A DNA stretch of 64,000 nucleotides from Candidatus Thorarchaeota archaeon (GTDB taxonomy: Archaea > Asgardarchaeota > Thorarchaeia > Thorarchaeales > Thorarchaeaceae). Location of the stretch: positions 88,471 through 152,470 of the forward strand of contig JAGSHN010000020.1 of assembly GCA_029855935.1 (NCBI GenBank), in the 5' to 3' direction. The translations under genes were made by a program, and so were the position numbers. Below the pieces are notes generated by a model, which had not been told where the DNA came from, ran no database searches, and saw only the letters and a program-made list of their open reading frames with translations. Each line of letters starts with the position of its first letter. Positions within the stretch are counted from its first letter, which is position 1. Shown here piece by piece: positions 5,032 through 58,189 of the stretch.

Positions 5032-6192
5032 TCAGAATATCTCGAAACCAAGTGGTGGTATTGACAGAATCAGCACCACCATGGCCACTATGAACAGCAC
5101 GACACGGAGCGGGTTAACAGGAACCGTGTCGTTCAGCGGGCCTGGATGCTCCATTCCTCGCGATAGCAGCAAGACCAGCACGGCCATCATGAAATAGCCA
5201 GCGAGAGCCATTACTATCACCGCCGCCCAGCCGATGTACTTGTGCGTCCTCGAACTGACAAGGGCTCTGAGGGCATGACCACCGTCAAGCTGGCTGGTGG
5301 GGAACAGGTTGAGCGCCGTGACAAGGCATCCCACCCATCCGGCAAATGCCACAGGGTGCAGGAATAGGGTGCCGCCAGGCGGAATCCGACCGCCGAATAG
5401 CTGTTCGTAGAGGATGAAGATGAACGGCACTGGAAGTGAGCCAGTCATATTCGGGAATGCTGCGTCAATGGCCTCAAGCTGATCTGCAGTGACGGGGACT
5501 GACAAGAGGAACCCCACATACAGCACGACCAGGGTGACAGCAAAGCCCGCAAAGGGACCAGCCACACCGAGGTCAAACAGGTCTCTCCTGGCACGGGGAG
5601 GACTCTTCTGCTGGATGAACGCTCCGAAGGTGCCACCGATAGAGGGCAGGCCGGGGATAAAGTACGGAGGAGTGGCCTCGATATGTCGTTTCTTTGCCAT
5701 CGTGTAGTGGCCCATCTCGTGCGTCGCAATGATCCCCATCAGAGAGAGAATGAAGATCCCGGTCACAAAGATGATGTCCCAGACCGTCCAGCCACCGGGA
5801 TAGAAGAGCGTTAGAAATACCGGGCTTATTGCCTGAAGGAACCCGCCCAAAGCAATGGTCGCAAGCGTTGCAACGAAGAGTGCGTAGTTTATTCGTATGT
5901 CAGACTTGCCCTCTCGCTGGATTGGAACAAAACGTACCACATACGTTCCGGCACGGCGGTCGTGCCACCGCACGATAGGCCAGACCCGAAGCTGCTCGGC
6001 CGCAGCATCGAGCTCGGAGAAGACCCACTCCTGCTCCTCTCGGCGGGGTATCACGCCGTCAGGCCATCTGAAGAGGAACACAGGCTGGCCGAACTCCAGC
6101 GCGCTGGCCAGCACCTCGAAATGACGTGAGAGAACGTTATTGAGCTCCGTGAATGTCGGGTAGCTCAGTACCCGTCCACTGTAATCATCCAT
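5032..6192 (-). CDS. Site-2 protease family intramembrane metalloprotease (M50)
   Basis: HEMGH zinc motif, AGP, NLFPxxQLDGG and multiple TM segments. Confidence 0.93.
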   Translation of the reverse strand: MDDYSGRVLSYPTFTELNNVLSRHFEVLASALEFGQPVFLFRWPDGVIPRREEQEWVFSELDAAAEQLRVWPIVRWHDRRAGTYVVRFVPIQREGKSDIRINYALFVATLATIALGGFLQAISPVFLTLFYPGGWTVWDIIFVTGIFILSLMGIIATHEMGHYTMAKKRHIEATPPYFIPGLPSIGGTFGAFIQQKSPPRARRDLFDLGVAGPFAGFAVTLVVLYVGFLLSVPVTADQLEAIDAAFPNMTGSLPVPFIFILYEQLFGGRIPPGGTLFLHPVAFAGWVGCLVTALNLFPTSQLDGGHALRALVSSRTHKYIGWAAVIVMALAGYFMMAVLVLLLSRGMEHPGPLNDTVPVNPLRVVLFIVAMVVLILSIPPLGFEIF

Positions 6193-6274
6193 AGCCAACC
6201 GTACTTGCCTCCGCCTTGAGCGGCAGACTTGCCTGCGCGCCTCTGCCTATAAGAATAATGCAGCAGGCAGAGCC

Positions 6275-8191
6275 CTACAACTCCAGCCGAGAGACTGTAC
6301 AGAACGTCTCATGGATTGTCTCCAAGAGGTCACCAGTCCCGTCGCAGCCCCCGACCAGAGTGACGGGAACACCAAGCTCCCGAAGCTGCTCCGCGAGTCT
6401 GCGGTCGGACTGGGGCGCTGTGGCCACAACAATCACATCGGCCGGAAGTATCGTTGTCTCTCCCTCAAGTTCGACCACCACGTTATTGAAGGAAACCTGT
6501 ACGACCGTGGCCTCTGTGTGCATCTTGACGCCTCGTTCGCGAAGCATCTTCAGAACAACCCATCTTGTCGAACGCCCCAGTCCAGCTCCAATCGCGCTAC
6601 CTCGTTCGACGATTGTCACATCTTGAGAGAACTGTGTGGCTCTCAGCGCGGCGTAGCACCCCAGCACCATTCCCCCGACAACGACAACGCGGTCCGCAAG
6701 TCCAACACCATATTCCATCACGTGCTGCGCAGACACAACGGTCGGGGACTCTACACCATCAACAGATGGTGCTGCGTCAATCGCTCCCATCGCACAGATG
6801 ACGTGGTCGAAACCCTCATTCCTCAGCATCTCCGCTGTCGCGTGCACTCCCAGCCTGAGGTCAACACTCAGACGCCGCAGCTCTCGCATCATATACGTGA
6901 CATACGAGGCGAACTCACCACGGCCGGGTGCCCGTGCTGCAAGCCTCAGTCCACCCCCCAAGATGGGTCGACGCTCGTAGAGAACAACCTCAACTCCTCT
7001 CAGAGCAAGAACTCTTGCGGCCTCCATTCCCGCGGGACCGCCGCCCACAACGGCAACCCGTCCCTCTGCCGGGGGACCGACACGTCGCTCACTCTCAAAA
7101 CCAGCCAGAGGGTTGATGGCACATGTGACGGCGCCAAGTGAGAACACACGGTCGAGGCAGCCCTGATTGCAACCCACGCAATAGCGGATCTCGTCCTCAC
7201 GGCCCTCTCGAATCTTGCCGACCACCTCAGGGTCTGCGATGAAGGCGCGAGCCATCCCTATGAGATGGACCCGTCCCCTATCAAGGATCCTCTGCGCCAC
7301 CGTCGGGCTGTTGATTCTGTTGCACGCTATGACCGGCACATCAACGACCTCTGAGATGCCCTCCGCCAAGTACGCGTAGTGACCGCGTGGGACATCCATC
7401 GTTATCTGCGGTACCCGGGACTCGTGCCACCCCCCGGTGACGTCGAAGCAGTCCACACCAGCCTCTTCAAACATCGGAGCAAGGCGCTTGTTGTCCTCGA
7501 GTGTGAGCCCACCCTCGACGAAGTCCTCCCCGCTCATTCGATACAGGACGGGGAGAGAAGGACCCACCGCGCGCCTGACTGCCTCGATCACCTCAAGAGG
7601 AAACCTTGCTCTGTTCTCAATGGGACCTCCGTAGTCGTCGGTACGCCTGTTTGTGCAGGGCGCGAGGAACTGATTGATGAGGTATCCGGCCGAACCAATG
7701 ATCTCAACGGCATCGAACCCGGCCCTCTTGGCGCGTGCAGCCGCGTGACCGAAGTTCTCCACCGTCCTGTGAATCTCTTCCACCGACAGAGGTCGCGGCG
7801 TCTCACGTGTCAGCCTGCTTGGGACATCGGAGGCAGATACTGGTTGCTCGCCAATCACGAGAGAGTGAGCGTATCTTCCCGCGTGATACAGCTGCGCCGC
7901 CACAGGGACCCCGTACTTGTGAATCACGTCGACTAGTCTCGCGAGGCCCTCTACGTGCTCGTCACGTGAGATTCCAATCATCGTGGGCAGACTCATCCCC
8001 AGACGCTCGGTGTAGCATCCGCCCACTATGATGAGCCCTGGTCTGTGGGCGGCCCTGGCCCTGTAGAACTCAACAAGCTTGTCAGAGATGAACCCGTCCT
8101 CACAATAGCCCAAGTGAGTCGCGGTCATGACTATTCTATTGTTGAGATGCAGAGCCCCTATTGACGCAGGGTCCATAAGCCTTGGCGACAC
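6275..8191 (-). CDS. NADH:flavin oxidoreductase / 2,4-dienoyl-CoA reductase (FadH-like)
   Basis: OYE barrel (QLYHAGR, GYLINQF, NRRTDDYGG..NRARF), Fe-S motif CVGCNQGC...C and GGGPAG Rossmann fold. Start probably GTG 8191. Confidence 0.9.
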   Translation of the reverse strand: MSPRLMDPASIGALHLNNRIVMTATHLGYCEDGFISDKLVEFYRARAAHRPGLIIVGGCYTERLGMSLPTMIGISRDEHVEGLARLVDVIHKYGVPVAAQLYHAGRYAHSLVIGEQPVSASDVPSRLTRETPRPLSVEEIHRTVENFGHAAARAKRAGFDAVEIIGSAGYLINQFLAPCTNRRTDDYGGPIENRARFPLEVIEAVRRAVGPSLPVLYRMSGEDFVEGGLTLEDNKRLAPMFEEAGVDCFDVTGGWHESRVPQITMDVPRGHYAYLAEGISEVVDVPVIACNRINSPTVAQRILDRGRVHLIGMARAFIADPEVVGKIREGREDEIRYCVGCNQGCLDRVFSLGAVTCAINPLAGFESERRVGPPAEGRVAVVGGGPAGMEAARVLALRGVEVVLYERRPILGGGLRLAARAPGRGEFASYVTYMMRELRRLSVDLRLGVHATAEMLRNEGFDHVICAMGAIDAAPSVDGVESPTVVSAQHVMEYGVGLADRVVVVGGMVLGCYAALRATQFSQDVTIVERGSAIGAGLGRSTRWVVLKMLRERGVKMHTEATVVQVSFNNVVVELEGETTILPADVIVVATAPQSDRRLAEQLRELGVPVTLVGGCDGTGDLLETIHETFCTVSRLEL

Positions 8192-8406
8192 GGTGATCCC
8201 CTCGGTGCGGGCGAAGAACTCGTTCAAATACCTACTGGCCAACTTGTGACTGTCAAGTCTCGGATGATTCTTATTAAGGCCAACGCGCATCGGTGTTCGC
8301 ACTGGCTCGTTTGTGACCATAGATTTGCACTCCACGCCCGTAAATTCGTCGCGTGCTCTCATACGGGCTGCTTACGGACCGGCTCGACATCTTCTACCGA
8401 GGAAAA

Positions 8407-8580
8407 ATGACCGCGATACGCAACGCATCCGACTTTCCGGACCTTCCGGACCCCCTCCCGTGGGAGGCAATGCCGGAGACCCCGGAGCCTGTGACTCCCT
8501 GGGAGGCAATGCCAGATCTTCCGGATCCTCTTCCGTGGAAGGCGATGCCGGAGACTCCAGAGCCTGTCACCCCCTGGTAG
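8407..8580 (+). CDS. 57-aa Pro/Trp-rich multi-repeat peptide (candidate precursor peptide)
   Basis: MTAIRNASDF-PDLPDPLPW-EAM-PETPEPVTPW-EAM-PDLPDPLPW-KAM-PETPEPVTPW*. The repeat copies differ at 10 synonymous sites and 1 non-synonymous site. Confidence 0.7.
   Translation: MTAIRNASDFPDLPDPLPWEAMPETPEPVTPWEAMPDLPDPLPWKAMPETPEPVTPW
8437..8577 (+). repeat. 75-bp tandem repeat (about 1.9 copies) with an internal 36-39-bp sub-repeat
   Basis: 8437-8511 aligns with 8512-8577 without gaps. Confidence 0.95.
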
Positions 8581-8591
8581 GGTGGCGCAGA

Positions 8592-8648
8592 CGGGGGGCC
8601 TCGGACCCAAAGACCTGGCACCGGGACCCCCCGCACAACTTCTCTTCC
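8592..8648 (+). terminator. Possible stem-loop and pyrimidine tract after the peptide gene
   Basis: CGGGGGG (8592-8598) pairs with CCCCCCG (8627-8633), followed by CTTCTCTTCC. Confidence 0.3.
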
Positions 8649-8730
8649 TAGACCATTCCATGCGTCGGCCTCAGCACGCAATGGACAAGATTCTTCTACA
8701 GGGCAGCCCAAGCGAGGCCCGTGTGTGTGA

Positions 8731-9189
8731 ATGAGAGTTCTGCGTACGCCATCTGAGAGCAAGGACCTCCCCATCGTGATGCGCCTGGGCGTCACCACGT
8801 GGAGGGTGCTGCTCGCGCTACTTGGAGCCCGTCGTCCTCTCGGCCCGCGCAGCCTCGCCAGGATGCTAGACCTCAGCAGTCACAGCGTGGCCCTGTACCA
8901 CCTGGAGAAGCTGATTGATGAGGGCTTGGTTGAGAAGACTTCAGATGGCGACTACAGGGTCCGACCTGATGCCCAGCTGGATTTCTTGGACGAGTTCCTG
9001 TATGTGGGATACCACGTTGTGCCGCGCGTCGTACTGTACGCCTCCTTTGTGACCGGACTGGTCCTTGCATTCGTTGTTCTTGGCTTGGCGGACTTCTCTG
9101 CTCAGACAATGTTCGTCTTCCTGATTGGAATCTCTGCCTCTGTCTTTCTGTGGTCCGAGGTGTATCGGCAGTGGAGGAGGCTCCCGTAG
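8731..9189 (+). CDS. Winged-HTH transcription regulator with two C-terminal TM helices
   Basis: ArsR-like segment LGPRSLARMLDLSSHSVALYHLEKLIDEGLVEKT..G.Y, followed by two hydrophobic segments. Confidence 0.8.
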   Translation: MRVLRTPSESKDLPIVMRLGVTTWRVLLALLGARRPLGPRSLARMLDLSSHSVALYHLEKLIDEGLVEKTSDGDYRVRPDAQLDFLDEFLYVGYHVVPRVVLYASFVTGLVLAFVVLGLADFSAQTMFVFLIGISASVFLWSEVYRQWRRLP

Positions 9190-18529: not shown

Positions 18530-20449
18530 CTACGAGTCTGTCCCCTCTGCGGTAGATGCCATCTCCGAGACCGATGAGTCTGCGGAGCCATTCAGACCAC
18601 GCAGGGCCTCAAGCTCGTTGCGGAGATTCCGAATCTCCTCCTTCAGCTTGAACTGCTTCGCCGTCTCAAGGGCCTGATTCAGCGCTTGAACCAATGCCTC
18701 ATATTCACGTTGTCGCTCTGTCGGGTCCTTCAGGGAGGCAATCTGATCTCGTTTACGTGGTACGAGCCGGAGAAGACCGCTGATTGCAGCAATGGCCTCA
18801 TCCCTACTCTGAAGTTCGCGCTCCTCCTCCTCGTCAGCCGCACTTACGATACGTGTGATCTGGTCGCGGAGATGCTCGTACTCTTTCAGGGCGGACGTGA
18901 GAATCTCCCGGACCTCCTTGTCTTCCGCTGATGTCTTCTCAAGCTCCCCCTTCAGCCTCTCCACCACTGACTCGAGGAACTGTCTTCGCGCGTCCAACTT
19001 CGTGCGCCTGCGCTCCATCCAGCGCCACTCGGACAGAATGTGCTTGACGAGGGCCTCTGCCTGATTTATCTTCTCCTTGTATTTCTCGGCCTTCTCCATC
19101 GCCGCCCTGAGGTCCTCCTCAAGCGTGTCCGCTATGAACGCGAGATGATAGCTCAGGATGTCCCCCGCACGTGCCTCCGCGAGGACACGGCTCTCCTTCA
19201 CGGCCCTCTTGGCCTCATCCCACAGGGCCTCCAGCTCCGAGTCCTCAAGTTCTGTGCGGCCCCTCATCTCGAACTCGTCCGAGACCTGCTCAACCCGTTT
19301 CTGGAGTTCCTGAAGCTCCGTAATCTTAGACCGAATGAGCGCTCTACCCAGCTTCCGGTTTAGCTCGCGGGTCAGCTTCTCACGTTCGTTCGGCACCTCA
19401 AGGAGAGCGTGAGTGTTGTCGATGAGCATCTGCAGCGCCAGCTCGTACTGTGCAACCGCCTCGGCAAACTGGCCCTTCTGCACGAGCTCATCGCCGCGCT
19501 TCTTCTGAACCAGCACACTCTCAAGAACGTCGTAGGGAGAGGTCTTGAGAGGGCCCTGTGCAAAGTCAACATTGATACTCGTTTCAAGGTCGTGGCCTGC
19601 TACGCCGTACAAGACCTGGCAGACGAGCAAGGATCCGCCTGTGCCCACGTAGATCTGATCGTGGTCAACATCAACAGACTCTATTCTCTCGCCACCTGTA
19701 TCCAGACGCCCAATCATCTGGCCCGTCTGCACCACCCAGATGGTGACCAGTTCCTGAGCGGATGCGGCGACCAGATAGTAGTCGTTGGCCCAGAGAGCAG
19801 CCACGGGTTGTGACACAACGTGAGGAAGCACCCGGGCGAGTGTCCAGTCCTCTCTCTGCCAGAGTTCGATGTCGCCGTTCCCGAGGCCGGCAATCACAAA
19901 TTCTTTGTTTCCAGCGAGTGCGGTACAGCGTTCCTTTGAGTTCAACTCCTTCATTCTTGAGGGGGCTGCACCATTCCTACGTTGCCAGACAACCACATTG
20001 CCCTTCTTCTTGTCAGACGTGCAGATGATAGTGTCGTCGACCCACAGCCCGGTGAGCTCGGACTTGTACAGCTGCCAGCTTGAAGTCTCGTGTGTCTCCT
20101 TGTTTATAGAGACAATGCGCCCCTCCCGAGAGCCGACCAAGAACGTGTCGTGATACATGGTCGACACAAGGGCTTGATAGCTGAGCTCAAACCAACCGAC
20201 CATCCCCCAGCTCGCCCTGCTCCAGACATAGACCCGCTTCCCGCACGTCGCGTAGACATTATCCGCGTCAACATGCACAGCAAGCGGAGGCGAACTGGTC
20301 TCTCCGAGCGTGGCCACCAGTGACCAGTCCTTCTTCGACCATACTCTGACAACGTTGTCGCGACAGGCTGCGTAGACGTGGTCCGTATCGTGTGTGATAC
20401 TGACGACATCAGCCTCAAGATCCACCATCCTCTCTATGGTGAGAGGCAT
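18530..20449 (-). CDS. WD40-like beta-propeller fused to a MIT/TPR-like helical bundle and coiled-coil region
   Basis: About seven repeats in the N-terminal ~290 aa (VYAACRDNVVRVW, VYATCGKRVYVW, VIAGLGNGDIELW, LVAASAQELVTIW). The C-terminal half is E/K/R/L-rich and helical. GGAGG precedes ATG 20449. Confidence 0.8.
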   Translation of the reverse strand: MPLTIERMVDLEADVVSITHDTDHVYAACRDNVVRVWSKKDWSLVATLGETSSPPLAVHVDADNVYATCGKRVYVWSRASWGMVGWFELSYQALVSTMYHDTFLVGSREGRIVSINKETHETSSWQLYKSELTGLWVDDTIICTSDKKKGNVVVWQRRNGAAPSRMKELNSKERCTALAGNKEFVIAGLGNGDIELWQREDWTLARVLPHVVSQPVAALWANDYYLVAASAQELVTIWVVQTGQMIGRLDTGGERIESVDVDHDQIYVGTGGSLLVCQVLYGVAGHDLETSINVDFAQGPLKTSPYDVLESVLVQKKRGDELVQKGQFAEAVAQYELALQMLIDNTHALLEVPNEREKLTRELNRKLGRALIRSKITELQELQKRVEQVSDEFEMRGRTELEDSELEALWDEAKRAVKESRVLAEARAGDILSYHLAFIADTLEEDLRAAMEKAEKYKEKINQAEALVKHILSEWRWMERRRTKLDARRQFLESVVERLKGELEKTSAEDKEVREILTSALKEYEHLRDQITRIVSAADEEEERELQSRDEAIAAISGLLRLVPRKRDQIASLKDPTERQREYEALVQALNQALETAKQFKLKEEIRNLRNELEALRGLNGSADSSVSEMASTAEGTDS

Positions 20450-20758
20450 GGTCCCGTCTGCACCTCCCGGAGAACTCGTCATGTTACCGACCTGCGGGCA
20501 GTGATTGCTGTTTAGAAAACGGGTCCGGTCCCGTTTAAGGCGTTTTCTAGTTGCCGAAAATACGGTGCATCATTCGAAAAACACGGGGACCGGTCCGGAT
20601 ATGGTGAGACAGGCTGATTCTGCCAGCCAGTGCCCCTTGTTCCTGACGGTCACGACCGGATGTGGGGACTATTTCCTCAGACTGCCCGTCAACATCCAGA
20701 ATACACTTAAGATAGGCATCATTTCCAGATTCAGCCGCACTAACAGGAGGAAGACTAT

Positions 20759-23449
20759 TTGGACTCTCGAAAGTGGCGAAGAGAGCTAGACCGTCTCTCT
20801 GAGATAAAAGGGATGCTCGTCACCATAGATCCCGCACTTGACGAACAGACTGACAGGATAATGAACCAACTCTACGACGTCTTCGCACGCCTCACGCGGG
20901 CCGAGAACGAGCTCGCAAGTGCAGGGTTTATGAAACGGAGGAAGCTTCAGTCGGTGGTCAAGAAGGCCAATAGCGACCTTGAGGAGGACTTTATGCGTGC
21001 CGTCAGAGAACTAGGGGAACTCTTCAGGAAAGAACACAGGGAGATCTCTACTCTTCTTCCCAAGCTGACAGCCCTTCGACCTATCGAGGCAAAGGCACTC
21101 TCCACAGTCGCGTTTCCGTCGATTGGTGCAGGAGACTTCTCCGACGCCGAGAGCCTGTACGACTTCGCGGGCAAGTTCACGAAGAGGTATTCGCTTCTCC
21201 ATCAGGAGATCACAAGGATGGTGAAGAACCTCCTCGACGAGAACAAGGGTATGGTAGACACCTACGAGCGTCACGTCACTATTGACAGGGGAGAGGTCTC
21301 GACCTCGGTCGCCACTGAAGATGTCACATCGCTCTCGCTTAGGGAGCTTCTCATTCTTCACGAGAAGCTGCTGAAGGAGAGAGAGTATCTCGACAGTCGA
21401 AAGGACGAGGTCAGCAGGATGCTTGCCACCTCACTGTTGTCAGAGGTAGAGGCTCTTCAGGCATCGGTGAGCACAGCCTCAAGATTCGGCCTCGACCTGC
21501 CTGTAGACTTCACCCACAAGCTGAGGCTCCTCGCGCGAGAGGCCTCGTCAGCCACCGATCTGACCACGCTGCTCACGCTTGAGGCACAGCTGCGCACAGC
21601 AGAGTCCCAGATGGCGAATATGCTCAGAGACAGAATCATCAATGTGAAGCACGAGGTCACGACAAGGATAGTGGACGGGGGGATACCGACCAGCGCGGAC
21701 ATAATTCCTCCCGCGCCAGTTCTCGAACTCGAGACGGACGACATCGCCACGCTTCTCTCTGCATACCAGAGGATGATGGAGTGGCAGGGCCAAGTGCGCA
21801 TCGCCCTCAAGGACAAGGTTGAAGAACTCCTTGAGGAACTCAACCGGGCCAGCGATGTCCCGAAGGACACTGGCATAACCGACGTGGTCGGTCTAAGGAA
21901 GTTCATCGCCGATTCGCGCGCAAAGCTCGACTCGGCCCAGATAGACGAACTGGTGCGAATCTACACCACTGCCAAGGGGATTCACGAGAAGGCTGTCAAG
22001 TTCGTCACGGACAAGATACGCGAATACATCGCCAGATTCAACGAGCTTGCCACATCTGCCGACAGGGTGCTTGACTATGCACAGTTGAGCAAGAAGGCGC
22101 CCAAGGTGGAGGAACTGCAGGGTAGCATAGTGTACCTTCTAGAGTCGTTGAACCGGCTCAGGGAGGCCGTGGACAGCGGTGTGGCTACATTCAGAGACGC
22201 GTGCCTGCAGGAGATTGACGCCATAATCCAAGACCTTCAGACTATCAAGCCTGCCTACGCAGAGATCTTTGTCCCCATAACACGGGACCTTGAAGAGGGC
22301 GCAGATAGAATCAAGACGCTCAATGACTTCGCCCAGATCAGGGGTGAGATGAGGGCCATAAAAGATGGCATCCTTGTCAAGGCCAAAGAGGCCCTTGAGA
22401 ACCTCAGATACAGGCTCGGTGTGAAGATCAGGCTCGCCGCAGCCAAGCTGATGGGAGCCGGTTTCGAGATACCAAAGGAGGCACAGGAGGCCATTGCCGA
22501 GCTCAACAGCATCGGTGTGGCTGCTGATAATGTCTTCAGCCTGCCGACTATCGCACGCAAGATGGTGGAGCTGTATGAACGCAAGATCAGCAAGACGGTC
22601 ATCGACACGCTGATTGAGAAGATCGAGGAGCTCATCAACAGCTTTGAGAAGGCCAAGGACATCGGTGTGGAGGTCGACTCGGAGCTTGAGACACTCTACG
22701 CAATTCGCGACAACCCACCGAGAGACCTCGAAGAGGCGGCAGAGGCCTTCGACAAGATCATGCAGATGACCACATCCGAGAGGCTGCATGAGAAGATCAA
22801 GGAACGGGCGAATCAGGCGTATGTGCAGATAGGAGGTGCCCTGTCAATCTTTGAGAGGCTCGGGATGTCTGAGTTTGTCGGGCGACTCAAGACGCTTCTT
22901 GAGGAGGTGCCCCAGCAGCTTGAGCATCAGAGCAAACACATCAACGAGGCTCTTGAGGTGTGCCTCACTCTCGCAAGTGTACAGAATGAGATGCTCACTG
23001 TGATCAAGGGTGTTGCCGAGAAAGAGAGCCAGCGCTTCGAACAGAGGCTGAGAAACGCAAGCAATTACTACTCGACCATAGAGAGAGTCATCGAGAAATA
23101 TCCAAAGGACTTCTCACGCCTCGTCTTCCCGGTTGAGCGTATCCAGCAGCTCGAGCAGCAGATGAGGGAGACAACCGACCTTGAGGAGGCACTCCAGGTC
23201 TTCGAGATGCTCCAAGAGCTCAGAGAGGAGTGGTTGCACCAGGTCGAGAAGATGGACGACTGGCACAAGAGCCTGAGAATGTATATGACAGGATTTAGTC
23301 CGACAATGAGTGCAGACGCTCGCGAGAAGTTCATTGAGGAACAGGTCAAGAAGATACGAGAGACCTTCAGTAGAGAGGACATCAGTTCCTATCTGTCGTG
23401 GGCACTCAGAGAGATTGCAGAGACAATGACCAGGGCAAGGGAACAATGA
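20759..23449 (+). CDS. 896-aa all-alpha coiled-coil/helical-repeat protein
   Basis: Long ORF with TTG start after AGGAGGA, heptad-rich, with no Walker motif or TM segment. First gene of the tubulin/FtsZ-like operon. Confidence 0.8.
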   Translation: MDSRKWRRELDRLSEIKGMLVTIDPALDEQTDRIMNQLYDVFARLTRAENELASAGFMKRRKLQSVVKKANSDLEEDFMRAVRELGELFRKEHREISTLLPKLTALRPIEAKALSTVAFPSIGAGDFSDAESLYDFAGKFTKRYSLLHQEITRMVKNLLDENKGMVDTYERHVTIDRGEVSTSVATEDVTSLSLRELLILHEKLLKEREYLDSRKDEVSRMLATSLLSEVEALQASVSTASRFGLDLPVDFTHKLRLLAREASSATDLTTLLTLEAQLRTAESQMANMLRDRIINVKHEVTTRIVDGGIPTSADIIPPAPVLELETDDIATLLSAYQRMMEWQGQVRIALKDKVEELLEELNRASDVPKDTGITDVVGLRKFIADSRAKLDSAQIDELVRIYTTAKGIHEKAVKFVTDKIREYIARFNELATSADRVLDYAQLSKKAPKVEELQGSIVYLLESLNRLREAVDSGVATFRDACLQEIDAIIQDLQTIKPAYAEIFVPITRDLEEGADRIKTLNDFAQIRGEMRAIKDGILVKAKEALENLRYRLGVKIRLAAAKLMGAGFEIPKEAQEAIAELNSIGVAADNVFSLPTIARKMVELYERKISKTVIDTLIEKIEELINSFEKAKDIGVEVDSELETLYAIRDNPPRDLEEAAEAFDKIMQMTTSERLHEKIKERANQAYVQIGGALSIFERLGMSEFVGRLKTLLEEVPQQLEHQSKHINEALEVCLTLASVQNEMLTVIKGVAEKESQRFEQRLRNASNYYSTIERVIEKYPKDFSRLVFPVERIQQLEQQMRETTDLEEALQVFEMLQELREEWLHQVEKMDDWHKSLRMYMTGFSPTMSADAREKFIEEQVKKIRETFSREDISSYLSWALREIAETMTRAREQ

Positions 23450-38473: not shown

Positions 38474-40635
38474 CACACGAAGAGATTGAGCATGCAACAA
38501 AGGTGCTCGGTCGCAGGCCGAACGACACAGAGCTGGCTATGCTCGACGTTCTATGGTCCGAGCACTGCAGCTACAAGAGCAGCAAGCGGTGGTTCCACCT
38601 GTTCAAGACGGATGGCGAGAACGTCTACCTGGGTATAGGAGAGGGGGCCGGTCTAGTCGACATTGGCGATGGCATCCTTGTCGGTGTAGCAATGGAGTCC
38701 CACAATCACCCAAGCCAGGTGGACCCGTACAATGGCGCTGCCACAGGCGTTGGCGGTATCATCCGCGATGTGATCTCACAGGGCTGCCGTGCAGTCGGCC
38801 TGATGAACTGTCTCAGATTCGGCCATCCCTCGAAGCCGAAGAACGCGTACCTCCTTGAGCGGGTCGTGAGGGGCATCTCTGACTACGGGAACAGTGTTGG
38901 CATTCCGATGGTGGGAGGTGAGATAGAGTTTGACGACTCATACGAGGGCAACTGTCTTGTGAACGTCGTATGCATCGGCGTTGTCCGTCCGGACAAGGTC
39001 GTCAGGAGTAGTGCCAGAACACCTGGTCATCACCTTGTCATCTTTGGCTCCACCACAGGTCGAGATGGCATCGCGGGCGTCAGCTTCGCATCAGAAACAT
39101 TCTCTGATGACGAGGAGGAAGACCGCAGTGCGATCCAGATTGGCGACCCTCTTGCGAAGAAGGTGGTTGTCGACACGCTTGCTCAGCTTGTTGAGGAAGA
39201 CCTGGTTGATGGTCTTCAGGACCTCGGCGGTGGGGGGCTGACATCCTGCGCAGGCGAGCTTGCCGCCAGCGGTGGCACTGGCGTCGAGATCGATGTGGCA
39301 AAGGTGCCTCTGAGAGAGCGTGATATGACACCGAGAGAGATCATCGTCTCCGAGTCACAGGAGAGAATGCTGGCCGTCGTCGCACCTGAGAAGCTCGAAC
39401 GGGTGCTGGAGATACTGATTGAGAACGACACTCCTCACGCCGTCATAGGCTCCGTCACGGACGACGGATACTTCACCGTGAAAGAGAATGGAGATATTGA
39501 GGCAAGGCTTCCAATCAGCCTGCTCGTCGGAGGCTTCCCAGTCCCCGAGCGCACCGAGGGATCTCTCCCTGTCCAGCCACACACTATGGACTGGTATGAG
39601 GAGCCGGACGACTATGTGGAGGAGATACTACGTCTGCTCGGCTCCGTCAATATCGCCTCGAGAGAGTGGGTGTACAGTCAGTATGACCAGCATGTCCAGT
39701 CCAATACAATAGTGGACATTGGTGAGAATGCGGGCGTTCTCGAGTTCCCGTTGAACAAACGGCTGGCCTTTGCGAGCCACTGCAACTCCTTTTGGACACT
39801 CCTCGATCCTCAACAGGGGACTGCTAACTCTGCTGCAGAGACGCTCAGGAACCTTGTCGCAATGGGCGCACGTCCAATCCTCATAGCCGACTGTCTCAAC
39901 TTCGGCAACCCCGAACGGCCAGACTCCTACGCCCAATTCGTAGAGGCAGTTCGAGGGCTCGGGCGGTTCTCGCACGACTTCGACATCCCAATAGTTGGAG
40001 GCAACGTCAGCCTCTACAACGAGTCCGAGGTAGAGGGCAAGGTGAGACGTATCAATCCGACGCCACAGGTGATGATGGCAGGCATCTTCGAGGCGGGATT
40101 TGCACCTGTGAGGCGCACGCTCTGCACACCGTGGGCCAATGTCTTTCTCATAGGCGAGACACTCGACGAACTGAACGGCTCCGAGTACCAGAGGTTGAAA
40201 CTAGGAAGGGTGCAGGGCTTTCCGCCCGCGTACCGACCCGTGGCAGAGAAGAACGCAATGGAGGCCGTGCTCAATGCTCATCGTGCTCGTCTGATAAGGT
40301 CGTGCAACAATGTTGGCAGGGGCGGTCTGGCCGTCGCGCTGATGAAGATGGTCATAGGCTCGGATTACGGTTTCAGACTGAACACCACCACCGTCCCCGG
40401 AAAGGCGGGAACTCTTGGCCGGGCCCTGTTCTCGGAGACATCCGCACGGTACCTGGCTGAGGTGAGCGAGAGCAACCAGAAGCAGTTTCTTGAGATAATG
40501 GCCCGCCACAACGTGCCAGTCTGCGAGCTGGCCCTCACCGTCGCAGATCACATTGCAGACTTTGGAGAGTTCAGAGTGCCTGTTGATCGGGCTGAGGAGG
40601 AATTCCGGACCAGTCTGTCACGATATCTGGAGTGA
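38467..40635 (+). CDS. purL: FGAM synthase subunit PurL (small form)
   Basis: [49 protein letters not shown] and GGNVSLYN. Confidence 0.97.
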
Positions 40636-56008: not shown

Positions 56009-58189
56009 ATGAGAACTAGACTGTTCGCAGCCGCCGTTCTTCTACTAGCTCTTGCCATTGCCCTATTTCCGTCGGCACAGATGCAGATAGGCCCAAGTGG
56101 TCACTCCCTCAGAGTACGGTCGAGTGTCACAACGGCAGCAGAGGCGGAGCTCCCCCTGATGTATTCTGGGGGTGACGTGCAGCGTGTCGAGGTCGCAAGA
56201 TACGACTCGATTACTGATGCACTTGCTGCAGTGAACAGCGGTGAGGCGGATGTCTTTGGACACAGGATACCGTTTGACAATGTCACGGTGGCTGACGGCT
56301 ATTCCAGTCTGAGCCGCCAATGGATGTACGACAACAGGGCGGTGGTTCTTGCACTGAACGCACGGTCCTACCCGCTCAACAGTCATCATCTGAGAAGGGC
56401 AATAGCCTATGCCGTGAACAAGACCGCAATATCCGATCAGGTCTTCGGAGGGCTCGTCGATGTCGCCGACTATATGTTGCCTCTGACCAGCAGGTACTCG
56501 CCGGATCGGAGCGGTACGGGTCTGTTCTACAACTCAGACTACCCAGCCGCCATTGAGGAACTCACTCTCGCGGGGATGCTCGATGTCGATGTCGATGGCT
56601 ATGTGGAGGCCCCGCACGGTCACGACCTGACTCTCAGGATAGCAGTTCCACTTGATCTGCCTGGGATGAACGAGACCGCGATACTCGTTCGTACGGGACT
56701 CGTGGCGATTGGACTCAACTCCACGATCGTCTACTTCAACCAGACGTATCTCCAGAACGGGGTTGCAAACCACACTCTAGACTACGACCTGGCACTGTAC
56801 CAGATGGACTTCCCGTACTTCGACCCGAGCTGGGGTGTGCTGACATTCTCGGGCGCGCGTCGCACAGAATACGGGGAGAACATAGCGAACATCAATGATC
56901 CCACGCTGAACGAGATTGCGGCCGCCGTGAACAGAGAGTACGACCACGATCTGAGAGTGAACCTGACACGGCAGGCGTTACGCGTTGTCAGAGACTACTG
57001 TCCGGTGCTCCCGCTGTTCTTCTACAGAAGCCTCTCGGTATACAGTACGGCGAACTTTGACAACTGGCCTCACGATTGGATAGGCGGTGCGTTCAGCGTC
57101 TGGACGCCCGTCACTGTGACACCACGAGAGGGGTCGGATGGCACGCTCCGGGTGGCCGTGCTGCCAGAGTTCTTTGACGGCTTCTTCACATCTCTCAATC
57201 CCTTCGTCAACTCCCCGCTCCTTGACGAGTCGTGGCTCTGGAGAGATCACTTCAACCCGTACTTGCTTGTCTACGATACGCCATTGGTCGTTCGAGGCGA
57301 TGGTGAAGTCGTGCCGAGGAATGCTGTCCGCTGGAAGATGGAGCTGGCCGGAATGGCCTCTGATGTTGGCAACAACGAGTCGAGAGCCGTCTTCTATCTC
57401 GATTCCACTGGCAACTTCACCGACGGAACCGAGCTGACTGCACAGGACTACGGGTTCACCTTCGAGTTCCTGTCCAATCGCTCCCTGATACCTCGGGCGG
57501 CCGACTTTGTCGAGGCGAAAGTCATTGGCGACTACAAGGTGGGAATCAAGTTCAAACAGCCTGACGTGTTCCTGTACAGGTCTGTGTCCGCCTTGCCAAT
57601 CCTCCCGAGGCACATATGGAGCGACAAGAACGTGACGGAATGGGACCCCTCACCAGAAGAGGTCATCGGCTCTGGACCCTTCACAGTCGAGTCATTCACT
57701 CCACACGCATCCCTCGTCTTGGAGACAAATGAGCACTACTACCCTACTCTCGACAATGCTCCGCCTCAGCTTCAGTTCATCAGGATAACACCAGACGATC
57801 CGGTCCCGACAATCAGCGTCCTCGTGCGGGTATTCCTTCTCGACAAGAGCCCCATCGAGAGGGTTGTTGTGAACTACATATACGACAAGGGCCCTCTCAA
57901 CTTCACAGAGAGCATTGAGATGGTCGAGACCCCCGTGGGCTACTATGCCATCATCCCGGCCCACATAACAGCCACCTTCGTCGAGTTCTGGATTACGGCA
58001 ACGGACATGTGGAACAACACGGGCGTCGTGGTCTCGGGGCGATACACCCTGCCAGCGACAACAGGACAACTGCTGCTGACCACTGTCGGTCCGCCAGCCG
58101 GGGGTGCCGCTGTTGTTCTTGTCGCTCTCGCAGTCCTTGTCAGGCGCAGAGGCCGGCGCGGGGCGGCTCCGCGTCCCACTCGCGTCTGA
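56009..58189 (+). CDS. ABC transporter family-5 (peptide/nickel) solute-binding protein, permuted, with a C-terminal TM anchor
   Basis: Signal peptide, then LRRAIAYAVNK, AG..D.D.DG, PVLPLF, LNP, FTDG..LTA.D..FT and IGSGPF, ending in a TM helix and basic tail. Confidence 0.85.
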   Translation: MRTRLFAAAVLLLALAIALFPSAQMQIGPSGHSLRVRSSVTTAAEAELPLMYSGGDVQRVEVARYDSITDALAAVNSGEADVFGHRIPFDNVTVADGYSSLSRQWMYDNRAVVLALNARSYPLNSHHLRRAIAYAVNKTAISDQVFGGLVDVADYMLPLTSRYSPDRSGTGLFYNSDYPAAIEELTLAGMLDVDVDGYVEAPHGHDLTLRIAVPLDLPGMNETAILVRTGLVAIGLNSTIVYFNQTYLQNGVANHTLDYDLALYQMDFPYFDPSWGVLTFSGARRTEYGENIANINDPTLNEIAAAVNREYDHDLRVNLTRQALRVVRDYCPVLPLFFYRSLSVYSTANFDNWPHDWIGGAFSVWTPVTVTPREGSDGTLRVAVLPEFFDGFFTSLNPFVNSPLLDESWLWRDHFNPYLLVYDTPLVVRGDGEVVPRNAVRWKMELAGMASDVGNNESRAVFYLDSTGNFTDGTELTAQDYGFTFEFLSNRSLIPRAADFVEAKVIGDYKVGIKFKQPDVFLYRSVSALPILPRHIWSDKNVTEWDPSPEEVIGSGPFTVESFTPHASLVLETNEHYYPTLDNAPPQLQFIRITPDDPVPTISVLVRVFLLDKSPIERVVVNYIYDKGPLNFTESIEMVETPVGYYAIIPAHITATFVEFWITATDMWNNTGVVVSGRYTLPATTGQLLLTTVGPPAGGAAVVLVALAVLVRRRGRRGAAPRPTRV

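Follow-up and report, generated by a model that had tools for sequence, protein, structure and literature searches.

A family of short proline-rich peptides in Thorarchaeia and its putative Lrp-type partner proteins

The open reading frame at positions 8407-8580 (+) of the window, by which is meant the whole 64,000-nt stretch of DNA analysed, is a real micro-gene in which the peptide sequence is the conserved quantity. It belongs to a previously undescribed family of proline-rich peptides of 12-92 residues in Thorarchaeia, which end in [E/T/D]-P-[W/F]. A core sequence that stays identical at two distant loci of a genome, varies between nearly all genomes and beside each paralog, and is tied to Lrp-type proteins encoded on either strand favours a reading as a diffusible ligand. 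On balance we think that, as comparison of the loci suggests, the genome-specific peptide would act in trans as the ligand of a putative tandem-Lrp regulator.

The gene runs over 57 codons from ATG to TAG and contains four proline-rich units in the order A-B-A-B, each with Pro-Trp at its end, the stop codon abutting the final Trp. A second copy lies on contig C4 of the source genome (G000, 2.97 Mb and 97% complete) beside the gene of P0003, a protein of 663 aa; this is the single type-A partner in that genome. The features of the window locus are:

6275-8362 (-): divergent OYE-type flavin oxidoreductase gene, a mere neighbour, its true start probably near 8176
8271-8278 (+): TATA-like box, 136 nt 5′ of the ATG, at equal distance in the C4 paralog
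8407-8580 (+): proline-rich peptide gene (57 aa, four cores), a solo copy of the genome's type-A EPW/TPW peptide
8407-8436 (+): N-terminal segment of 10 residues, neither conserved nor hydrophobic, residues 4-7 differing in the C4 paralog
8437-8463 (+): core A, copy 1 (Pro11-Trp19)
8470-8502 (+): core B, copy 1 (Met22-Trp32), nearest to the cores of sister species
8509-8538 (+): core A, copy 2 (Met35-Trp44)
8545-8577 (+): core B, copy 2 (Met47-Trp57), its C-terminal Trp free without processing
8592-8650 (+): GC-rich stem-loop and pyrimidine run 3′ of the stop (z -1.2, alone not significant), a likely terminator
8731-9189 (+): downstream gene for a winged-HTH protein with two TM segments, a mere neighbour outside the system

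A preliminary description, made from the letters of the DNA, had reported this four-core layout with its PW ends, and had counted 10 synonymous differences and a single non-synonymous one (E/K) between the two 22-codon halves. Both statements proved exact, and the second pattern has a binomial P of ~5e-6 under neutrality. The purifying selection claimed there is upheld by the C4 paralog (L004:1501-1674), which has identical cores and a different N-terminus, with four of the first seven residues changed. Over codons 8-57 the two copies show 21 synonymous and 0 non-synonymous differences (pS 0.61; P ~4e-14), the paralog has TGA in the same place as TAG, and the flanks outside the ORF give no alignment. 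Pairwise, the four 22-codon units differ by 8-12 bases, so recent copying cannot explain their identity. The description had also cautioned that an antisense frame shares the wobble positions. Within the gene this frame indeed shares third positions with the sense frame and gives the same 10/1 count, but between the paralogs it takes 18 synonymous and 3 amino-acid changes against 21/0 in sense, and the third positions of Trp and Met codons are invariant, which settles the matter for the sense frame. In the whole genome, the motif P[DE]xP[DE]Px{1,2}PW has eight matches, confined to the window copy and the C4 paralog.

The two copies look like separate transcription units, each with a TATA box at a constant distance from the ATG and a hairpin behind the stop codon. 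Across the family, a TATA-like hexamer occurs at -140 to -121 in 40 of 83 loci, and a strong hairpin (z < -2) follows the stop directly in 63% of loci, compared with 2% of controls. The 5′ leader of the window copy is estimated from its sequence at ~105 nt. In type-A loci the distance from box to ATG is constant at ~135 nt and the sequence itself variable, which implies that the 5′ leader is long and of uniform length. The leader of the C4 copy folds well (z -2.8), while that of the window copy does not. No operator shared by the two copies was found beyond the TATA box.

The genes flanking the window copy appear incidental. No peptide gene precedes the HTH-TM gene in any of 29 homologous loci, and in the sister species G002 the OYE and HTH-TM genes form the same pair with no peptide gene between them. 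A sensing circuit comprising the HTH-TM protein, a 602-aa membrane protein and a site-2 protease was considered, and the HTH-TM gene was dropped from it on the 0/29 result; an M50 site-2 protease is encoded at 5032-6198 (-), 2.2 kb from the peptide gene. Elsewhere in the window, a PfkB (KDG kinase-like) gene appears split over two frames (1635-2228 and 2259-2570, +), by frameshift or assembly error, and is followed by a KDPG aldolase gene. A 650-aa protein with WD40-type propeller matches below cut-off (18530-20482, -) is divergent from an 896-aa protein without a Pfam match (20759-23449, +). A family-5 peptide-binding protein of the Opp/Dpp type (56009-58189, +) may offer an import route.

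Relatives of the peptide are free-standing small ORFs, with a median length of 29 residues (range 12-92) and one to four cores; this answers the homolog check proposed in the preliminary description. The peptides are acidic and 20% proline. EPW is the terminal motif in 65 of 84, the terminal residue may be Trp, Phe or Tyr, and 79 distinct sequences of the final ten residues occur among 83 cassettes. An 8-residue stretch above 1.5 on the Kyte-Doolittle scale, as sought for a hydrophobic export signal, is present in only five of the 84. The layout of leader, conserved spacers and cores that had been likened to cyanobactin and alpha-factor precursors did not hold, since the leader differs between the paralogs and the spacers vary freely in the family. 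Nor is the leader a general precursor part: 60 of the 84 relatives have a single core, many being only 12-15 residues long with no leader, and the Met of the supposed EAM/KAM spacer matches the M-x-P start of these minimal relatives. One type-A clade (L039, L040, L058, L063, L065, L069, L070, L073, L077, L083, L086 and L087) has a conserved N-terminal part of 25 residues with an SPF motif, often with a Cys before the core, and this clade could have a true leader.

Direct searches returned relatives in a sister species, in one other genus and in one metagenome protein, and four of these relatives sit upstream of a P0003-type 663-aa protein. Word-index protein searches returned only the C4 paralog and one Thorarchaeota partner, and a pattern scan of metagenome DNA gave one true relative (L368, the same as L047) and 74 chance matches. 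No family for the peptide or for P0003 was found in Pfam or NCBIfam, and the PDB sequence search was empty.

The number of residues past the last motif is 0, 2, 4 or 6, never 1 or 3. In type A the tail is 0 in 66 cases, 2 in 16 and 6 in one, plus one false call, with 11 changes of length along the partner tree; in type B it is 0 in 16, 2 in three and 4 in one. Judging from these lengths, removal of dipeptides from the C-terminus, halting at the penultimate Pro, would produce such even tails. The searches did not bring out a dipeptidyl carboxypeptidase; that for M2 enzymes lacked a positive control, and the sole M3 enzyme is PepF-like.

The preliminary description had also proposed that neighbours be compared, and the conserved neighbours of the family are Lrp-type proteins, although the window copy itself lies apart from its partner. 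The taxonomic family of the source genome, represented by the genomes of 86 species, is taken as Thorarchaeia, since a partner homolog (P0012) bears the NCBI name Candidatus Thorarchaeota and the taxa of Atlas neighbours are mostly Thorarchaeota and other archaea. Homologs of P0003 occur in 75 of the 85 other family genomes, compared with one of 314 other genomes of the phylum. That sole outside case (G126:C292), from a genome with 8% contamination, lies on a short contig and is possibly mis-binned. A small proline-rich ORF with the terminal motif lies 160-410 nt upstream in 79 of 108 type-A partner loci. The rule for calling it was drawn up after examples were known, and as controls the identical rule called one peptide in 108 opposite-strand regions, one in 91 regions lying farther upstream and nine among 744 long ORFs of G000. 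Reading of the loci by hand added five more peptides and one divergent case; by the rule, about a quarter of type-A partners have no neighbouring peptide. The EPW motif also appears fused at the N-terminus of two partners (L114, L120), a probable coincidence, as L113 reads ESW there.

A scan for Pro-x-[ED]-Pro-Trp-stop revealed more micro-ORFs away from P0003 homologs, and their conserved neighbours are two other proteins, types B and C, both divergently transcribed. Type B is a 555-aa protein with a Pfam HTH_AsnC match above cut-off (E 1e-9), which puts it among the predicted members of the Lrp/AsnC superfamily. When type B was searched independently, a divergent peptide was present in all 20 members at ≥48% identity, and eight distant members that were read were without one. 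Type C (357 aa, in 77/86 genomes) has only weak HTH matches, and a divergent peptide lies 600-800 nt away in 21 of 23 loci with enough DNA. The type-C peptide is followed by a small orphan gene, then an MFS-like gene and an endonuclease III-like gene; in G000 it has 11 aa, is Pro-Phe-ended and lies on contig C2 at ~38790-38830 (-). Type-C loci (G000 C2, L330-L359) contain a divergent pair of tandem-Lrp-like genes. A second ORF of 32-40 aa with a Cys-containing Pro-Phe end was seen ~400 nt from the type-C regulator in L340, L342, L346, L353, L355 and L359. At least seven more tandem-Lrp-like proteins are encoded in G000 (C5, C21, C29, C2), none with a neighbouring peptide.

The predicted structure of P0003 (pLDDT 86) comprises a beta domain, a small helical domain and a tandem Lrp fold. 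Its C-terminal half (319-656) matches the tandem Lrp-fold protein NirDL (Foldseek E 6e-5; Z 11.3, rmsd 5.4, 267 aligned), so that in the model a winged HTH followed by a RAM domain occurs in tandem, as in the Lrp/AsnC superfamily. The role of type A as a regulator is putative, as its HTH parts have no Pfam match and NirDL is an enzyme. The N-terminal half gave no convincing fold match (best Z 4.5), which does not establish a new fold, and the middle domain (182-318) has weak zincin-like matches (Z ~4). The N-terminal 100 residues of type B (L279-L291) also look zincin-like by eye, with the metal motif replaced (RECL). It is possible that these parts of types A and B are an inactive peptide-binding domain. 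Sequence links among the three types are weak (hhalign E 0.002-0.004, probability 8-13%), and their common ground is thus architecture. Prediction of a complex of P0003 with the peptide scored 0.13 (mark 0.32), which speaks neither for nor against binding.

No partner gene adjoins the window copy, whose cores are exactly those of its own genome's C4 cassette. Eight further solo copies were found, in G002, G010, G033, G044, G055, G069, G071 and G085, those of G055 and G069 being one shared locus. For all nine, the best match of the last ten residues among 83 cassettes is the type-A cassette of the same genome; seven are identical at 10/10 residues, and the median against other cassettes is 3-4. 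The pairs, which have mostly diverged synonymously, were chosen by eye ahead of this rank test, and four other solo peptides stand unassigned to a cassette: L228, L239, L242 and the first ORF of L232. At the latter locus (G044:C69), which has no partner in the vicinity, a pair of unlike EPW micro-ORFs lies in tandem with 400 nt between them, and the second encodes the peptide of that genome's cassette. That solo copies retain the cores of their own genome's cassette favours a trans-acting peptide over a cis-acting leader, and it is the window copy that separates the two kinds of action.

In the mechanism proposed, the window gene would be a duplicated, free-standing copy of the type-A peptide gene with its own promoter and terminator, producing a short acidic proline-rich peptide with a working unit of ~10-12 residues, x-P...[E/T]-P-W. 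This unit would be a trans-acting ligand that P0003, encoded on C4, would recognise by its sequence. The RAM domains of Lrp proteins bind amino acids, which makes binding of the terminal Trp plausible; by this analogy the invariant Pro-aromatic end would be the anchor and the variable proline-rich part the address. The partner may control the peptide promoter, and four cores in two loci may raise dose or avidity. The cores could be cut apart or act as a multivalent chain, and prolines near both ends would resist exopeptidases.

Linkage by itself would fit equally well if the peptide were a regulated output, its gene switched on by the Lrp-type neighbour and the peptide acting on a target elsewhere, be it as an inhibitor of peptidases, as an antimicrobial or as a signal of kin recognition read by a surface receptor. 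Regulators are commonly divergent from their targets, as types B and C are from the peptide gene, proline-rich peptides with a Pro-aromatic end resist proteases, and extra solo copies and repeats would increase dose. This is nevertheless unlikely in our judgement: where a genome has several regulators, each is accompanied by a core of its own, and a single shared outside target needs no such set of private keys. Related partners also carry related cores on the partner tree, though kinship alone predicts the same.

It is quite unlikely that P0003 is a modifying or processing enzyme and the peptide its RiPP-like substrate, altered for instance at the terminal Trp. Such a role could be argued from the top structural match being an enzyme, Lrp-fold enzymes being known (NirDL/AhbAB), from a conserved His-rich motif at residues 388-395 (W391 99%, H393 90%, H395 95%), from the weak zincin-like matches of the middle domain and from multi-core genes being typical of RiPP precursors. 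Like PatE of cyanobactins, fungal multi-core precursors and yeast alpha-factor, the window gene has repeated cores and short linkers in a small ORF. Unlike them, it has no conserved leader, protease recognition spacer or signal peptide, with no adjacent protease or cyclodehydratase seen, and whereas cyanobactins have fixed flanks and variable cores, the fixed motif here sits in the cores. The 57-aa sequence has no dibasic KR/RR site of the Kex2 type. YcaO and C39 gave 0 matches in the 97%-complete genome, with controls positive in 5 and 7 of 14 genomes; the search for PatG_C lacked a positive control, and S8 proteases are present, on neither peptide contig. Against an enzyme stand also the many peptides of 12-15 residues in total, the interchangeable terminal residue (Trp/Phe/Tyr) and the AsnC/MarR-like HTH matches of types B and C, which have the same kind of peptide. 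Of the signalling peptide or RiPP precursor put forward in the preliminary description, a signalling or regulatory role is likely, and the RiPP layout fell away.

A cis-acting arrest peptide, with a ribosome pause at Pro-Trp-stop governing the hairpin and hence read-through to the next gene, is very unlikely. In type A the peptide, hairpin and gene follow one another on one strand, and as in leaders of the TnaC and SecM type a small ORF has a Pro close to its stop codon and a hairpin separates it from the gene that follows; stalling at proline-rich ends and at Pro-stop is well known, TnaC being an example. However, a constant position 5′ of one regulated gene holds for types A and C only, not for the window copy or type B. 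Type-B peptides keep the divergent partner rather than the downstream gene, which varies over 10 unrelated families and runs towards the peptide gene in 5 of 18 cases, and several solo copies face convergent genes too. The hypervariable, genome-specific cores of solo copies would be superfluous for a general ribosome-tunnel motif, internal repeats and two-residue tails past the motif are common, and the gene downstream of the window copy lacks a peptide in its 29 relatives. That the ORF is no peptide gene, its repeats being DNA or RNA elements or coding for a Gly/Ser-rich antisense frame, is refuted by the codon pattern, with all three stop codons found after the motif across 84 loci, and has virtually no probability left.

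The ligand reading recalls several known systems. RRNPP receptors carry a TPR or TPR-like peptide-binding domain, and the pairs of Bacillota and their phages include Rap/Phr, PlcR/PapR, Rgg/SHP, ComR/XIP, AimR/AimP and AloR/AloP (PMC7425212). As in these, a tiny gene adjoins a regulator gene in tandem or divergently (the C4 paralog does so, the window copy does not), the proposed active unit is short and C-terminal, variants are numerous, and a genome can have several pairs as well as orphan partners. The thorarchaeial partners differ in having a tandem Lrp/AsnC fold or AsnC/MarR-type HTH, with no TPR match among types A, B and C. Their peptides, from archaea, differ in being acidic and 20% proline, in having repeated cores and solo copies and in having no hydrophobic N-terminal signal sequence (5/84 exceed the threshold).

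The tandem HTH and RAM architecture is common to the partners, Lrp/AsnC regulators and NirDL/AhbAB. Known effectors of Lrp/AsnC proteins are free amino acids and substrates of NirDL are tetrapyrroles; the partners differ from both in an N-terminal extension of 140-320 residues that matches no fold and in the co-encoded peptide. Bacillus ComX has a Trp near its C-terminus, often with two residues after it, a variable N-terminal part and many pherotypes, and the peptides are alike in all of these, including the two-residue tails. They differ in being proline-rich and in that Phe may replace Trp, and the loci read show no adjacent ComQ-type prenyltransferase or ComP kinase.

A wider proposal, which we regard as doubtful though possible, is peptide quorum sensing in Asgard archaea: Pro-capped Pro-Trp peptides would be cell-to-cell or kin-specific signals with tandem-Lrp readers and two to four private channels per genome, amplified by multi-core and solo copies and trimmed by dipeptides to a fixed Pro-Trp end. 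No paper on the peptide family was found in the literature, nor a description of such a peptide-and-receptor system for archaea. Within an incomplete coverage of the literature, neither a gene-encoded peptide signal paired with an intracellular receptor of its own in Asgard archaea nor an Lrp-fold protein that responds to a peptide was found. There are ~140 natural peptide-partner pairs, and cores of 10-12 residues can be synthesised, making specificity testable in vitro without culture. The wider proposal would mean an Asgard quorum-sensing system made of parts unrelated to the bacterial ones. The ligand reading, if true, would already show that pairs of peptide and receptor also arose convergently among the relatives of the ancestor of eukaryotes.
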